The notes under the pieces are model-generated. The model had not been told where the DNA came from and did no database searches. It worked only from the letters and a program-made list of their open reading frames with translations. A program made the translations under genes and the position numbers. From IMG/VR virus record IMGVR_UViG_2531839233_000005, positions 1 to 4,571 of that record: a DNA stretch of 4,571 bases; one strand, written 5' to 3'. The stretch comes from a virus. Taxonomy: Duplodnaviria; Heunggongvirae; Uroviricota; Caudoviricetes. Of this stretch, positions 1 to 4,571 are shown piece after piece. Each line of letters opens with the position of its first letter. The first letter of the stretch is position 1.

Positions 1-44
1 GCTGATCCCTGGACGCCTTCCATTCTGATGTTTGACTCGCCCAC
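1..44 (-). CDS. Possible 5' end of first gene of a leftward early operon (partial, runs off window start); product unknown
   Basis: Minus-strand GTG at 44-42 preceded by GAGGA (reverse complement of 52-56) with 7-nt spacing; frame stays open to the window edge (VGESNIRMEGVQGS...). Only 14 codons are visible. Lies downstream of the predicted leftward promoter at 124-153. Confidence 0.25.
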   Translation of the reverse strand, partial: MGESNIRMEGVQGS

Positions 45-123
45 TGAGAAATCCTCTGCTTCCCCTTAACGCCGGGTAGCGGAACTGTTTGCTGAGAACA
101 CCGTGCGGTGTCTTGATGAGTAG

Positions 124-176
124 AATTTAGAATAGCCTAAGAGTTATGGTCAAGCTTTTTGTGTAGAAAAACCTAA
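124..176 (-). promoter_or_regulatory. PL-like leftward promoter with two operator-like palindromes (OL-like)
   Basis: Minus-strand -35 TTGACC (reverse complement of 148-153), 18-nt spacer, -10 TAAATT (reverse complement of 124-129). TTAG-aatagc-CTAA at 127-140 overlaps the -10 and spacer; gTAG-aaaaac-CTAA at 163-176 lies just upstream of the -35. Both share the motif found in the 661-727 operator cluster. Confidence 0.4.
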
Positions 177-251
177 GCTTCTTGATGTAAAAAACACAAG
201 TATTTGAAAGTTTGTGCTTTTTATTACAGAGAGTTGCGAAAAAAAGGGGGG

Positions 252-659
252 TTATTTATTTGCGCTTCTTTTGCGAGCTTTGAGTAGTTCTTCAAAAAGT
301 TTGTTGAAATTCTCAACTCGAGCACGCATCTCTGACAACAGAGCCTTTTGCTCTGACTCAGGCAGTGCGTCGAACAGTTGAAGCAACTCTTTTTGATCTT
401 CTGTCAGATTGACTGGCTGATTATCTGGGATCGGTTCGCCTGGTTGCTTATCTTCATCTCCAAAAAGAAGCCAAGTCGGCGAGCACTGAAGCGCCTGGCT
501 CAGTGCGAATAATCTCTTCCCCGCTGGCTGTGTTTCATCTCTTTCCCATTGAGAAATTGTTACGTGAGCGACTTTGACCAGCTTACCTAATGCGGCCTGA
601 GACAGTTTTAATTTTTTTCGCCTGTATAAGAGGCGAGCACCGAAGGTTTCGTTTTTCAT
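252..659 (-). CDS. dicA: Prophage repressor, DicA-like (XRE-family HTH, CI analogue), 135 aa
   Basis: Complete 135-aa ORF. N-terminal XRE-type HTH (LSQAALGKLVKVAHVTISQWERDETQP). Length and the C-terminal segment (LFALSQALQCSPTWLLFGDEDKQP ... ALPESEQ ... EMRARVENFNKLFEELLKARKR) match what I recall of E. coli Qin DicA. Divergent from a Cro-like gene. No SD upstream of the ATG. Confidence 0.85.
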   Translation of the reverse strand: MKNETFGARLLYRRKKLKLSQAALGKLVKVAHVTISQWERDETQPAGKRLFALSQALQCSPTWLLFGDEDKQPGEPIPDNQPVNLTEDQKELLQLFDALPESEQKALLSEMRARVENFNKLFEELLKARKRSANK

Positions 660-667
660 ATTAGGTA

Positions 668-696
668 ATTCTAATTTTTCTTGACTTAGGTTTCTC
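668..696 (-). promoter_or_regulatory. PRM-like promoter for the repressor gene, probably giving a leaderless or near-leaderless mRNA
   Basis: Minus-strand -10 TAGAAT (reverse complement of 668-673) ends 8 nt before the A of the repressor ATG (659). Weak -35 (GAGAAA, reverse complement of 691-696) at 17-nt spacing. The -10 is overlapped by the operator site at 661-674. No SD for the repressor. Confidence 0.35.
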
Positions 697-709
697 TACG
701 ATCTAGTTT
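681..709 (+). promoter_or_regulatory. PR-like rightward early promoter
   Basis: -35 TTGACT at 681-686, 17-nt spacer, -10 TAGTTT at 704-709 (TA...T conserved). Overlapped by operator sites at 686-699 and 710-727. Drives the Cro-like gene, whose RBS AAGGG (724-728) sits 7 nt before the ATG at 736. Confidence 0.4.
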
Positions 710-735
710 CCTTAGGAAAATCTAAGGGTTTCGAT

Positions 736-963
736 ATGTTGAAAATTGATGCTATAGCGTTTTTTGGCAGCAAAACAAAGCTTGCCAATGTCGCAGGAGT
801 TAGGCTGGCAAGCGTTGCTGCATGGGGGGAACTGGTTCCTGAAGGTCGCGCGATGCGCCTGCAAGAGGCATCCGGCGGGGAACTTCAGTACGACCCCAAA
901 GTTTATGACGAATATCGTAAGGCAAAGCGGGCGGGGCGGTTGAACAATGAAAATCACCACTGA
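736..963 (+). CDS. dicC: Cro-like regulator, DicC/YdaS family, 75 aa
   Basis: Complete 75-aa ORF divergent from the DicA-like repressor. Motifs typical of DicC/YdaS Cro analogues (FGSKTKLA..AGV..ASV..W, then GGELQYDPKVY). The symbol is assigned from synteny and recalled similarity, not from a search. Confidence 0.75.
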   Translation: MLKIDAIAFFGSKTKLANVAGVRLASVAAWGELVPEGRAMRLQEASGGELQYDPKVYDEYRKAKRAGRLNNENHH

Positions 964-1498
964 ACAGGTTTGTGAGGCTCTGGATACCTGGGTATGCCGA
1001 CCAGGAATGACACAGGAGCAGGCGACGATATTAATCACGGAAGCATTCTGGGCTCTGAAAGAACGCCCGAACATCGATGTTCAACGCGTCACGTTTAATG
1101 ATGGCGAGGTTGATCAACGGGCGCTGGGCGTTAACCGGGTGAAGATATTCGAACGCTGGAAAGCTATCGACACCAGAGATAAGCGTGACAAATTCACGGC
1201 GCTGATTCCGGCAATTATGGAGGCTATCCGGATCAGCGATTTCAGATTGTATTGTGAAATTACTGACGGAAAAAGCATTACGTACATGATCGCCGGGTTA
1301 AACAAAGAATATGGCGATGTGGTGGAGTCCGGGCTGCTTTTTGCGGATCCAGTTGTTGTGGAACGTGAGACTGACGAGCTTATAGAAAAAGCTATTGCTT
1401 TCAAGCACGCGTATCGTCAGCAATACCAATATTACTTTGCAGATAAACAAATGTCTGCCAGGGGGGCGTATGAGTATCGATGCACTACGATGGGCTAA
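947..1498 (+). CDS. YdaT-like protein (CII-analogous regulator / 'toxin YdaT' family), 183 aa
   Basis: Complete ORF starting at an ATG that overlaps the dicC-like stop by 17 nt. Sits immediately after the Cro-like gene, as ydaS-ydaT does in Rac and CP-933P. Contains the LIPAI motif and the MKI..E N-terminus I recall from YdaT. Longer than the roughly 140 aa I recall for K-12 YdaT. Confidence 0.55.
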   Translation: MKITTEQVCEALDTWVCRPGMTQEQATILITEAFWALKERPNIDVQRVTFNDGEVDQRALGVNRVKIFERWKAIDTRDKRDKFTALIPAIMEAIRISDFRLYCEITDGKSITYMIAGLNKEYGDVVESGLLFADPVVVERETDELIEKAIAFKHAYRQQYQYYFADKQMSARGAYEYRCTTMG

Positions 1499-2510
1499 AA
1501 AGGTGAAAACCGGCAGTTCATCCAGTAAGTCAGTATTGACCTGGCTTGCTGATATGTGCGGTGCCGATTTGTGTGCATACCCGTCTGTATCTGCACTGGC
1601 AGAAGTAACGGAACTGAACAAAAAGACTGTGCAGGACAGCTTACGACACCTGATGGAGATTGGGTTAATTGTTGATACCGGTGAGAGAAAAGGCAGAACA
1701 AAGCAAATTGTGGTGTACCGACTTATCGGTGTAGAAGAAAGTGTTGCCGAGCCTGAATACACCCAAAAACGGGAGTCTTTAAAGGTGGGTAAAATTGGTG
1801 CTGTTAATAAAAACAGTACCGAAAATGGTTATGTTTCAGCACAAAACAGACCCAAAAACAGAACTCTTAGCTGCATGGAAAATAACCAAAGACACCCAAA
1901 TTTTCCATCAAAGACACCCAAAAACGGATCACGGAACCCAAAGGAACCCAAAGATCTAAACCCCACACATAACGCACGCGAGAGTGCTCCGACCAGTGAG
2001 CAGGAAGTTTTGTCGTTACAGGCAGCCCCCCCTGTATTCCTGTATGGCCTGAGCGAACCCATCGGAAAATTCCCGATGAGCGATAGCTGGTATCCGTCAC
2101 GGGATTTTCGACGACGGGCTGCGTTGTGGGGGATGGCTTTGCCGGAGACAGAATTTACACCTGCTGAACTTGCCGCCTTCCGGGACTACTGGGCAGCGGA
2201 GGGGAAAGTGTTTACGCAGATTCAGTGGGAGCAGAAATTCGCCCGTCACGTAAATCACGTCAGGGCGCAGGTTAAACCAGTCAGCAAAGGGGTAAACCAT
2301 GCAGCAGCACCAGGTGGCACCGCATCACGGGCAGTTCAGGAAATTCGGGCAGCACGTGAGCAGTGGGAACGTGAAAACGGATTTATCAGCAACGGAAACG
2401 GCCTGGAAGCTGTGGGAACTCATGGGGGAGGTTTATTCGAACCGCTGGACCCAGAAGAACGGGGCCGCACCTTCGAAGCTCTGGATTGCCCAGATTGGTG
2501 CGATGACTGA
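1470..2510 (+). CDS. Phage replication initiator (O analogue): N-terminal HTH, low-complexity linker, DnaT-like C-terminal domain; 346 aa
   Basis: ATG at 1470 preceded by a G-rich SD (GGGGGG, 1461-1466); the TTG at 1395 from the ORF track is rejected. N-terminus MSIDALRWAKK...LIVDTGERKGR is typical of prophage initiator wHTH. C-terminal W..PS..F....W..F..W..KF..HV pattern resembles the DnaT ssDNA-binding domain. The linker is encoded by the iteron-like repeats. Confidence 0.8.
   Translation: MSIDALRWAKKVKTGSSSSKSVLTWLADMCGADLCAYPSVSALAEVTELNKKTVQDSLRHLMEIGLIVDTGERKGRTKQIVVYRLIGVEESVAEPEYTQKRESLKVGKIGAVNKNSTENGYVSAQNRPKNRTLSCMENNQRHPNFPSKTPKNGSRNPKEPKDLNPTHNARESAPTSEQEVLSLQAAPPVFLYGLSEPIGKFPMSDSWYPSRDFRRRAALWGMALPETEFTPAELAAFRDYWAAEGKVFTQIQWEQKFARHVNHVRAQVKPVSKGVNHAAAPGGTASRAVQEIRAAREQWERENGFISNGNGLEAVGTHGGGLFEPLDPEERGRTFEALDCPDWCDD
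1757..1953. repeat. Iteron-like direct repeats (candidate replication origin) inside the initiator gene
   Basis: CCCAAA cores at 1762-1767, 1851-1856, 1895-1900, 1917-1922, 1937-1942 and 1947-1952. ACACCCAAAAACGG is repeated exactly at 1759-1772 and 1914-1927. AAGACACCCAAA is repeated at 1889-1900 and 1911-1922. GGAACCCAAA is in tandem at 1933-1952. The four distal cores are spaced about 22, 20 and 10 bp. An AT-rich stretch lies at about 1786-1845. Confidence 0.5.
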
Positions 2511-2964
2511 ACAGCAAATCCGTCTGGTGTGCCGTCAGTGCATGGACCGCTGCCGGGCGGGTGAAACGTGGCCCCCGGACCTGGCTGAGTTTGTTGCGCT
2601 GATTTCGGAGAGTGGGGCAAATCCATTTGGTCTTACGGTGGATGCCGTGATGGAAGAGTACCGGCGCTGGCGCAATGAATCCTGGCGATACGACGGGAGT
2701 GATAAATACCCGTGGCCACAGCCTGTGCTGTACCACATCTGCCTCGAAATGCGTACCAGAGGGATTGAGCGCCAGATGACGCAAGGTGAGTTAAAACGAC
2801 TTGCGGAACGGCAACTGACGAAATGGGCAAAGCATGTTGGTAACGGGATGAGTGTTCCGCCAGTGCGACGACAACTGGAAGGGGCGAAACACCCGCAAGG
2901 GCCAACGCCAATTGAACGGCTGAAACAGGAATACGAACGCCGGAAGGCAGCTGGTTTTATTTGA
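2299..2964 (+). CDS. Replication protein P-like (DnaB helicase loader), 221 aa; start uncertain
   Basis: C-terminal half aligns by eye with lambda P (WPPDLAEFVALI vs LPSPGQFVAWC; YDGSDKYPWPQPVLYHICLEMRTRG..QGELKRLAERQL vs YPDAESYPWKSNAHYWLVTNLYQNMRANALTDAELRRKAADEL). ATG at 2299 has SD AAAGGGG (2286-2292) at 6-nt spacing. Alternative starts are 2422 and 2503; the 2503 ATG nearly abuts the initiator stop at 2508-2510. Confidence 0.7.
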   Translation: MQQHQVAPHHGQFRKFGQHVSSGNVKTDLSATETAWKLWELMGEVYSNRWTQKNGAAPSKLWIAQIGAMTEQQIRLVCRQCMDRCRAGETWPPDLAEFVALISESGANPFGLTVDAVMEEYRRWRNESWRYDGSDKYPWPQPVLYHICLEMRTRGIERQMTQGELKRLAERQLTKWAKHVGNGMSVPPVRRQLEGAKHPQGPTPIERLKQEYERRKAAGFI

Positions 2965-2997
2965 ATCTGAGAAACGATTTTGTCGGAGGAAATATTA

Positions 2998-3714
2998 ATG
3001 GAAACCGTATTTGACGCACTGAAAGCACTGAAAAAAGCCTCTTCACAGGTAGTGGCATCGCGCCTTGGAATTAGTCGTGAAGAGGCTGTCAACGAACTGT
3101 GGAAACTGAAACGCCGTGGAGAAGCGGATAACAAGGGGGCGATATGGTGGCTGACTCAGGCTGGTGAAAGTGAACCGGTGTCACCGGTACCGAAAGTGAC
3201 GGCGCAAATGCTGACAGAGGCGATTGAACAACATGGCCCACAAACGGCGGATGAACTGGCATTGATGTTCGGAATTACCTCCCGCCGGGCGAATTCATCG
3301 CTGGCAATGGCAATCAGCAAAGGGTGTCTGATTCGCGTGAATCAGGATGGTAAATTTCGTTACTGCATACCGGGCGTTGATTTACCGGCAGAGCCGAAAG
3401 CAGCATCCGTAGCTGAAACGGAGGGTAAAGCCCTTCCTCAGCCAGCTGGTGTTGCGTTACCAGTCCAGGAAACGGCTGCACAGGAAGAAATTAAAACAGA
3501 AGCGGTGGAGGACATTGTGAAGTTGCAGCAATCGTTCACTGAAGCGAAAGCAGATGACCTGATTCTACCATCGCTGCATGTGGCTAACCGCGAGCTGCGC
3601 CGGGCGAAAAGTAATGTTCAGAAGTGGGAGCGAGTCTGTGCTGCGCTACGGGAACTGAACAAACACAGGGATATTCTCCGGGATATTACCGCCACCAGAG
3701 AGCAGCAGCGGTGA
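2998..3714 (+). CDS. Hypothetical protein, 238 aa: two predicted winged-helix-like segments, acidic/Pro-Ala linker, charged helical C-terminus
   Basis: ATG at 2998 with SD GGAGGA (2985-2990) at 7-nt spacing; the TTG at 2980 is rejected. Residues about 1-55 and 70-125 look like wHTH units ([19 protein letters not shown]; [29 protein letters not shown]). Stop TGA 3712-3714 overlaps the next start. Confidence 0.75.
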
Positions 3715-4028
3715 GTGGCTGGAAGAAGTGGCGCTGGGCTGAAATCCTGATACTCCGGCAGTGTGCGGGAACGATGAGAGTCGAAAGCATCGGTTATCTG
3801 ATTGGCCGTAGTGAGTCAGCCGTCAGGACGAAAGCGCGGGAACTGGGTATCAGCATGATGTTACGGGGTGATTATCACCAGTCAGCCAAATGTTCACAGC
3901 GTGATATTGAGCTGGCGTGGCAACTGCATCAGCGTGGTGTACCCCGACGGGAAATTGCCGAAAAGTTTGGGATGAAGTTGGGCGCAGTGAATAACTACGT
4001 TTATTTCGACAGGAGGGTTCAGGAGTGA
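3711..4028 (+). CDS. Small dual-HTH DNA-binding protein with GcrA-like N-terminal segment, 105 aa
   Basis: GTG at 3711 overlaps the upstream stop (GTGA), implying translational coupling. [42 protein letters not shown] resembles the GcrA N-terminal HTH pattern (W..E..L......IA..LG.SRNAV.GK..RLGL). A second HTH-like segment is [19 protein letters not shown]. Alternative start ATG 3774. Confidence 0.6.
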
Positions 4029-4327
4029 GGGTGAGGGTTTATATCGCCGGTCCGATGACGGGATATGAAAATTTTAACCGCGAGGCATTTCACAAAACGG
4101 AAGAGGTGCTGAAACGGGAAGGGCATACCGTTTTAAACCCGGCAGTACTTCCGGACGGGCTGACTCAGCCACACTACATGGATATTTGCATGGCAATGCT
4201 CCGTTGCGTGGATGCGGTTTACATGCTGAAAGGCTGGCAGCAGTCGGCAGGTGCAGGGGCTGAGCTGGCACTGGAGGAGAAACCGGGCCATGCGGTGATT
4301 TTTCAGGAGGTGGGCAGTGAATATTGA
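4025..4327 (+). CDS. DUF4406-family protein (nucleoside 2-deoxyribosyltransferase-like fold), 100 aa
   Basis: GTG at 4025 overlaps the upstream stop (GTGA), with AGGAGG (4011-4016) 8 nt upstream. N-terminal VYIAGPMTG, then NPA and GW..S.GA..E matching what I recall of DUF4406/NDT-like small phage proteins. Confidence 0.7.
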   Translation: MRVRVYIAGPMTGYENFNREAFHKTEEVLKREGHTVLNPAVLPDGLTQPHYMDICMAMLRCVDAVYMLKGWQQSAGAGAELALEEKPGHAVIFQEVGSEY

Positions 4328-4571
4328 CCCGGCGATAACGATTGATATGGCCCTGAACGCCGGCCTGGCACTTCTTGGTTATTTCTACATTATGTTCTGC
4401 AGCGGACGATGGCTGTCACTGTTGTTCATGAAAAAATGGAATAAACGCCGTAAGCAGGAGCAACGCCAGAAGGCAATGGATGCATTTTTCGAAGCCTTCG
4501 GAATTGACGGCATGGAACCAGGGGATCCAGCTCGCGCAATCAGCAGAGGGGGCGTAGTAATCCTTGTATAC
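4317..4571 (+). CDS. Hypothetical membrane-anchored protein (partial, continues past window end)
   Basis: Absent from the ORF track because it has no stop in the window. GTG at 4317 with strong SD AGGAGG (4305-4310) at 6-nt spacing; overlaps the DUF4406 stop by 11 nt. 85 codons open to the window end. Predicted TM helix (ALNAGLALLGYFYIMFCSGRWLSLLFM) followed by a basic stretch (KKWNKRRKQEQRQK). Confidence 0.5.
   Translation, partial: MNIDPAITIDMALNAGLALLGYFYIMFCSGRWLSLLFMKKWNKRRKQEQRQKAMDAFFEAFGIDGMEPGDPARAISRGGVVILVY

Follow-up and report, generated by a model that had tools for sequence, protein, structure and literature searches.

We analysed a window (the whole stretch of DNA under study, 4,571 nucleotides) that covers the part of a lambdoid prophage devoted to immunity and replication: a divergent HTH repressor gene and a P22-Cro-like gene, assigned by Pfam and PHROG, are accompanied by a rightward series of genes (Table 1). 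From cro on, all genes are co-directional and either overlap or leave gaps of no more than about 16 nt, so that the earlier note's term early operon is a reasonable one. Scans of the window for consensus promoters and terminators and an Rfam search yielded nothing above chance. The O-like initiator (1395-2510) contains a DnaT DNA-binding domain (PF17948, E=1e-16), and its longest ORF overlaps that of the P-like gene (2299-2964) by ~210 nt; in the RefSeq models of the homologous genes the starts lie further on and the overlap shrinks to 8 nt.

Near the right end of this series lies the gene that concerns us here. It is a real open reading frame, as the earlier note had described it, and the YIAGPMTG motif to which that note pointed is present at residues 6-13. 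Its GTG start codon and the stop codon of the preceding gene share the letters GTGA (4025-4028), an arrangement that also occurs at the DUF1627/HTH junction (3711-3714), and it shares 11 nt with the downstream DUF4752 gene (4317-4327). The upstream HTH gene matches PHROG 323, 'transcriptional regulator' (E=2e-24), and has weak matches to Pfam HTH families.

The encoded protein matches Pfam DUF4406 (PF14359) over residues 4-92, corresponding to model positions 2-90 of 91 (E=2e-33, 115.1 bits vs a cut-off of 22), and PHROG 355, which is named 'nucleoside 2-deoxyribosyltransferase' (E=4e-43). In E. coli O157:H7, the identical gene sits in the prophage adjoining potC/potD (L001, 9426-9728), and RefSeq calls its product WP_001310212.1 a 'DUF4406 domain-containing protein', a label that it applies across hundreds of E. 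coli genomes. Public databases thus already cover the gene, its family and its superfamily label. In the literature, we found no assay of any DUF4406 protein and the name DUF4406 in three papers, each time in passing; the protein itself and the Pfam and InterPro accessions were not found there.

Table 1. Positions of the features discussed, numbered within the window
Feature	Position	Strand	Basis
Rightward early operon: Cro-like, YdaT/cII-like, O-like (DnaT domain), P-like, DUF1627, HTH, DUF4406, DUF4752	736..4571	+	Pfam, PHROG
Upstream HTH gene; probably begins with GTG at 3711, across the DUF1627 stop, and ends across the DUF4406 start	3711..4028	+	PHROG 323, RefSeq model
AGGAGG, putative Shine-Dalgarno-like sequence 8 nt before the GTG start	4011..4016	+	sequence
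DUF4406 coding sequence, 100 aa, GTG start, TGA stop (4325-4327)	4025..4327	+	ORF list; PF14359; identical span in RefSeq
Codons 6-13, YIAGPMTG, predicted strand 1 and following loop	4040..4063	+	sequence, alignments
Codon 25 (A25T)	4097-4099	+	codon comparison
S74-A-G76-A-G-A-E80 segment	4244..4264	+	aligned to 2a0k PDCGTAFE and DNPH1 S98-G100-E104; MilB spacing
Helix alpha3 stretch with R78G, A84E and L87P	4256..4285	+	codon comparison, 19 close relatives
Downstream DUF4752-family gene with predicted membrane helix; runs off the window	4317..4571	+	sequence, RefSeq annotation of a 99.9% identical region

Exchangeable neighbours of the DUF4406 gene

The window is itself a recombinant mosaic, with 96.5% identity to PPompW-type prophages over positions 1-3111 and 99.9% to the O157:H7 prophage over positions 3600-4571; as one piece, the whole window occurs in no complete E. 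coli genome. At least 80% of the segment 3600-4571 is held by 382 of 5,426 complete E. coli genomes, and in 276 complete E. coli records the best match to it is at least 99% identical. The identical DUF4406 allele also occurs in a separate viral contig (L006). In E. coli strain 350, the match to the module extends to position 4018, after which a different gene of 75 aa replaces DUF4406.

Among 78 close relatives (60-99% identity), the gene upstream of DUF4406 belongs to seven unrelated types, with the HTH type of the window accounting for 24, and the gene downstream to 15 types, with DUF4752 accounting for eight. For five of the seven upstream types, representative loci show a 4-nt overlap between the end of that gene and the beginning of DUF4406, which suggests that cassettes are exchanged at gene boundaries. 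The earlier note had imagined the protein as coupled to DNA-binding proteins. Since the neighbours vary freely and none is consistent, we see no functional link to the DNA-binding ones, and, the neighbourhoods being mosaic, we reject a functional coupling to the HTH and DUF4752 genes. We see in this single-domain member of the family an ordinary accessory gene that lambda-like prophages can swap, located in the replication-proximal ('nin-like') part of their early operon.

At more distant loci, where we considered, to the left and to the right, the two closest ORFs running in the same direction (80 loci, 252 non-redundant proteins), the neighbours include helicases (ResIII/DEAD, SNF2, DnaB), RusA, YbcO, VRR-NUC, NinB and about nine clusters of DNA methylases, and a single dCTP-deaminase-like protein was found among the 252. 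Given such varied neighbours, we regard DUF4406 as a free-standing early DNA-metabolism cassette that has no obligate partner.

Two further observations concern these loci. DNA methyltransferases (N6/N4, C5, MT-A70) are the commonest specific neighbours, at a raw count of about nine of the 252 clusters; in Brujita (L005, gp55-gp57) the DUF4406 gene lies between two methylases, and locus L081 also belongs to the methylase set. Moreover, in 11 of the 80 diverse viral loci (L105, L108-L110, L114, L117, L118, L131, L132, L135 and L143; e.g. L109:3465-4139) DUF4406 forms the N-terminal part of a fusion of ~220 aa with DUF6378 (PF19905), a domain whose PHROG label, 'phosphofructokinase', is doubtful and for which neither a solved relative nor, even at E=10, a further Pfam match was found.

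Fold, conserved residues and the window allele

The AlphaFold2 model of the protein, computed with 94 homologues, is confident, with a pLDDT of 88.5 and a pTM of 0.83. It places strands at residues 4-8, 35-37, 64-67 and 90-93 and helices at 19-31, 48-59 and 75-85, and it resembles nucleoside 2-deoxyribosyltransferases (NDTs), DNPH1/Rcl and MilB. True NDTs (2a0k, 6evs) are the best Foldseek and profile matches. Searches of PDB sequences with the single protein or a narrow profile returned nothing relevant, and NDTs were reached by a broader profile alone: one built from 62 diverse members finds T. brucei NDT (2a0k) with E=2.9e-4 over positions 2-95. Several relatives also cross-match PF05014 and DUF1937, below threshold. 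Together, the model and the profile link to 2a0k support the NDT/Rcl-like Rossmann fold that the earlier note had put forward.

Residue equivalences to DNPH1 and MilB are taken from sequence-profile alignments; the human DNPH1 sequence that we used is identical to the PDB chains at residues 20-162, and the substrate complex 8qhq carries E104Q. In the alignment to 2a0k, S74-x-G76-A77-x-x-E80 lies over P-D-C-G-T-A-F-E. The comparison of the profile with DNPH1 (hhalign) is weak (E=0.028), and it places Y6 on Y24, S74 on S98, G76 on G100 and E80 on E104, in the same register as with 2a0k. Indeed, S74-A-G76-A-G-A-E80 shares its S-x-G-x-x-x-E spacing both with S98-L-G100-V-G-Y-E104 of DNPH1 and with S97, G99 and E103 of MilB. 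The earlier note had raised the conservation of a catalytic Glu/Asp, and this holds for the glutamate, Glu80 being near-invariant and aligned to DNPH1 E104, whereas the general-acid aspartate (Asn in some enzymes of the fold), expected where the helix after strand 2 begins, does not appear to be family-wide. The sole candidate general acid in the window protein is D53, as judged from the alignments; it is present in only 45% of DUF4406 representatives, and its alignment is ambiguous, since D80 of DNPH1 falls two positions from it and the Asp of 2a0k three.

The DUF4406 domain stops after strand 4 and the chain ends seven residues later, without the five-stranded parallel sheet (order 21345) of the N-(deoxy)ribosyltransferase-like (DrHyd) superfamily. 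MilB and DNPH1 both possess a fifth strand and an additional helical element, which in DNPH1 extends into the active site of the partner subunit. Likewise, the alignment to 2a0k ends at residue 106 of 161, and the C-terminal element contributed by the partner subunit has no counterpart in DUF4406. By the predicted model, DUF4406 is a truncated, four-stranded version of the NDT/DNPH1/MilB fold. Alongside these missing active-site parts, we name, by inference only, the conserved N18-R19 of a DUF4406 loop as a candidate pair.

At 50% identity, the family comprises 17,435 clusters (E<=0.001), and many of the members collected come from phages and prophages. Across the 266 members examined, S74, G76, A77 and E80 are conserved at 93-96%; for S74 (96%), G76 (94%) and E80 (94%), the remainder are nearly all gaps. 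At position 6, 84% of the representatives have Tyr and 11% have Phe. Ten further conserved positions (N18, R19, F22, N38, P39, P43, G45, Y51, M58 and W71) have no counterpart in the known enzymes. Codon differences among the relatives are mainly synonymous (non-synonymous/synonymous 1017/2620 = 0.39), which indicates purifying selection on the reading frame in the family.

The window protein has the length of its family and shares its motifs YIAGPM.G, NR..F, LNPA.LP.GL, YM.I and GW..S.GA..E. It keeps all of the family-conserved residues Y6, G9, N18, R19, F22, N38, P39, P43, G45, Y51, M58, W71, S74, G76, A77 and E80, whereas A84 is replaced by Glu at a position where about 91% of the family have Ala, and Pro87 and Gly78 likewise set this allele apart. 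Compared with 19 close relatives, four codon changes are unique to the window, A25T, R78G, A84E and L87P; all are single-base and non-synonymous, and unique synonymous changes number zero. Under the family ratio, a crude calculation gives ~0.006 for four of four being non-synonymous. Three of the changes, R78G, A84E and L87P, fall in helix alpha3, the one that bears Glu80 and whose counterpart in DNPH1 is the dimer-interface helix. This pattern of codon changes suggests relaxed constraint or a lineage-specific shift, and because of the three unusual substitutions in the Glu80 helix, the window copy may be functionally impaired.

Probable substrate class and proposed reaction

What DUF4406 might do is best judged against the enzymes that share its fold. 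In DNPH1, a 2'-deoxynucleoside 5'-phosphate N-hydrolase, the triad Y24/D80/E104 operates through a covalent glycosyl-enzyme intermediate formed by E104, and the phosphate of the substrate is held jointly by S98 and, from the other subunit, S128' (PMC10603095). DUF4406 is ~45 residues shorter and without strand 5; it has neither the helical extension from which S128' comes in trans nor the helical element with E55/H56. The sequence similarity to DNPH1 is not significant on its own, and the equivalent of D80 is uncertain. MilB binds the phosphate by Ser97 and Gly99 and uses E103 as nucleophile (PMC4081090). MilB and BlsM are N-glycosidases of CMP and hydroxymethyl-CMP; MilB differs from DUF4406 in having five strands, 170 residues, a conserved Asp78 and, where DUF4406 has Tyr, a Phe linked to ribose preference.

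The NDTs of PF05014, represented by T. brucei 2a0k, have the same Tyr and Glu and provide the best sequence-profile link, which covers nearly the whole domain. PF05014 does not match the window protein at E<=0.1, and relatives score 17-21 bits vs a cut-off of 28.8. The Asp of the NDT motif D-x-G-T-x-x-E, which is said to hold the 5'-OH of the nucleoside and is absent, as Asp/Asn, from nucleotide-specific members (PMC12884076), is Ser in DUF4406, and the C-terminal third of NDTs, ~55 residues past the aligned region of 2a0k, is absent. DUF1937 (PDB 1t1j, a structural-genomics protein) is a separate, uncharacterised Pfam family and adds nothing on function.

Another useful comparison is with DmtZ of Z-genome actinophages, an NDT-fold dAMP hydrolase/deoxyribose-5-phosphate transferase whose gene is adjacent to or fused with that of a Dut-like enzyme, and which uses Trp124 of the second monomer (PMC12884076). 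Judged by its published description, it resembles DUF4406 in being a phage-encoded NDT fold with a dNMP substrate and a triad containing the Tyr6-type and Glu residues. DmtZ is linked to a dNMP-handling Dut-like enzyme, as DUF4406 is linked to a dNMP kinase or dUTPase in some phages. The same description sets the two apart: DmtZ had no Pfam model and hence is not DUF4406, and it has ~145 aa, five strands, a second-monomer residue in use and a place in phages with 2-aminoadenine DNA. Pfam and PHROG assignments found no dut or purZ genes in the window.

Three lines of evidence argue for a substrate class. The invariant Ser, at a position where nucleoside-specific NDTs have Asp, favours 5'-phosphorylated deoxynucleotides over nucleosides. 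Tyr rather than Phe at position 6 favours deoxynucleotides, by analogy with DNPH1 and MilB, which act on deoxyribose and ribose, respectively. Finally, natural fusions of DUF4406 to dNMP kinases favour dNMP substrates. Such fusions occur on two independent contigs among the 80 diverse viral loci, as single uninterrupted, collinear ORFs that are 54% identical (L116:3501-4364, 288 aa; L163:3501-4388, 296 aa), and their P-loop kinase domain is assigned to PF21448 (E=1e-14 and 2e-20) and to PHROG 139 (6e-47). In addition, the gene immediately after DUF4406 in Vibrio phage 1.075.O encodes a dUTPase, and Arthrobacter phage Tweety19 has a gene for a dNMP kinase nearby.

On these grounds, we infer catalysis, substrate class and biological role as follows. 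DUF4406 would bind a 2'-deoxynucleoside 5'-monophosphate, with Tyr6 positioning Glu80, and Glu80 would attack C1', releasing the base and leaving a covalent deoxyribose-5-phosphate ester on the enzyme. This ester would be resolved by water, making the protein an N-glycosidase, or, less likely, by another base, which would amount to phosphodeoxyribosyl transfer. The role of the reaction would be to edit or clean the dNMP pool during phage DNA replication. We consider such a minimal dNMP N-glycosidase working through a covalent Glu80 about as probable as all other readings taken together. The absence of strand 5 and of the C-terminal element, the apparent lack of a conserved general-acid Asp and the weak match to DNPH1 speak against the proposed activity. 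Against a pool-editing role stands the observation that the neighbours are mostly genes of DNA replication, recombination and methylation, with few nucleotide-pool enzymes; moreover, it is not obvious what purpose the destruction of dNMPs would serve in a temperate phage with ordinary DNA.

As a member of a known family, the gene is of modest interest. Enzymes that share its fold have lately been shown to be important, DNPH1 as a sanitiser of the nucleotide pool and DmtZ in the synthesis of phage 2-aminoadenine DNA. The proposed reaction predicts that a protein of 100 residues cleaves dNMPs in a Glu80-dependent manner without the element that usually completes the active site in trans. If true, this would be the smallest working version of the catalytic fold, and it would give a function to thousands of phage genes.

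Alternative readings of the family

The truncated fold, the absence of the trans-acting active-site element and a general-acid Asp that appears not to be conserved would also fit a protein that is no enzyme at all, being a nucleotide-binding or structural remnant or, in the case of this allele, a decaying gene in a cryptic prophage. The four unique non-synonymous changes, including A84E and a proline in helix alpha3, with no unique synonymous one, point the same way, as does the O157 prophage with the identical allele, which carries several pseudogenes. Nevertheless, we think this rather unlikely: Glu80, Ser74, Gly76 and Tyr/Phe6 are near-invariant over the 17,435 clusters, as catalysis would predict from the alignments, and the whole family is under purifying selection. 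As for decay, the ORF is intact, the same allele recurs in the separate viral contig, and the region is highly conserved in the 276 complete E. coli records mentioned above. A classical NDT, swapping bases between free deoxynucleosides, is suggested by the name that PHROG 355 and many GenBank and UniProt entries give to relatives, by the true NDTs at the top of the Foldseek and profile matches, and by the transferase activity known for some phage PF05014 NDTs (bioRxiv 10.1101/2025.10.22.683976). The sub-threshold PF05014 scores, the invariant Ser at the position of the motif Asp, as in nucleotide hydrolases, and the missing C-terminal third nonetheless make this activity unlikely.

Two readings place the target outside the ordinary dNMP pool. 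The relationship of the fold to TIR and DrHyd proteins makes it structurally possible that DUF4406 acts, as a hydrolase or a sponge, on NAD+/ADP-ribose-derived or other nucleotide immune signals in counter-defence. We judge this quite unlikely, since sequence profiles tie DUF4406 to NDT and DUF1937 and not to TIR, whose sequence signature was not found in the window protein, and since the S-x-G phosphate motif and the kinase fusions point to mononucleotides. NCBIfam and the PADLOC defence library gave no match to the protein, a link in the literature was not found, and DrHyd-type NAD enzymes are rare in viruses (survey of Iyer et al.). The DNA enzymes that dominate the neighbourhoods in diverse phages, among them the methylase clusters, RusA, helicases, YbcO and VRR-NUC, raise the thought that DUF4406 acts on DNA itself, removing or exchanging a base at a 5'-phosphorylated end or a methylated site together with phage methylases and recombination nucleases. 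However, no neighbour is consistent, such phage regions carry methylases and nucleases regardless, and the papers on DNPH1, DmtZ and MilB describe no characterised member of the fold that is active on polymeric DNA; we consider this very unlikely.

A broader variant of the dNMP N-glycosidase reading starts from the report that Dam-methylated m6-dAMP is a danger signal of at least one E. coli defence system (bioRxiv 10.64898/2026.01.15.699771). DUF4406 proteins would then be a widespread, hitherto unrecognised class of erasers of dNMPs, perhaps of modified ones such as m6-dAMP, serving counter-defence or pool editing. The present evidence lends the defence link no specific support, and we rate this variant as highly improbable.

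Database names of short DUF4406-type genes vary. Some are deposited as 'MazG-like pyrophosphatase', 'MazG-like protein' or 'deoxycytidylate deaminase' (L004 gene 28, L166 Orisa01_00067, L167 gene 52). What had looked like 'MazG-like' and 'dCMP deaminase' fusions in GenBank (H55, H56) proved to be merely inconsistent names on such short genes, so that these labels are evidence of neither function nor fusion. The 'MazG-like protein' record is a fragment call of 42 aa, and other DUF4406-type genes are named NDT or hydrolase.
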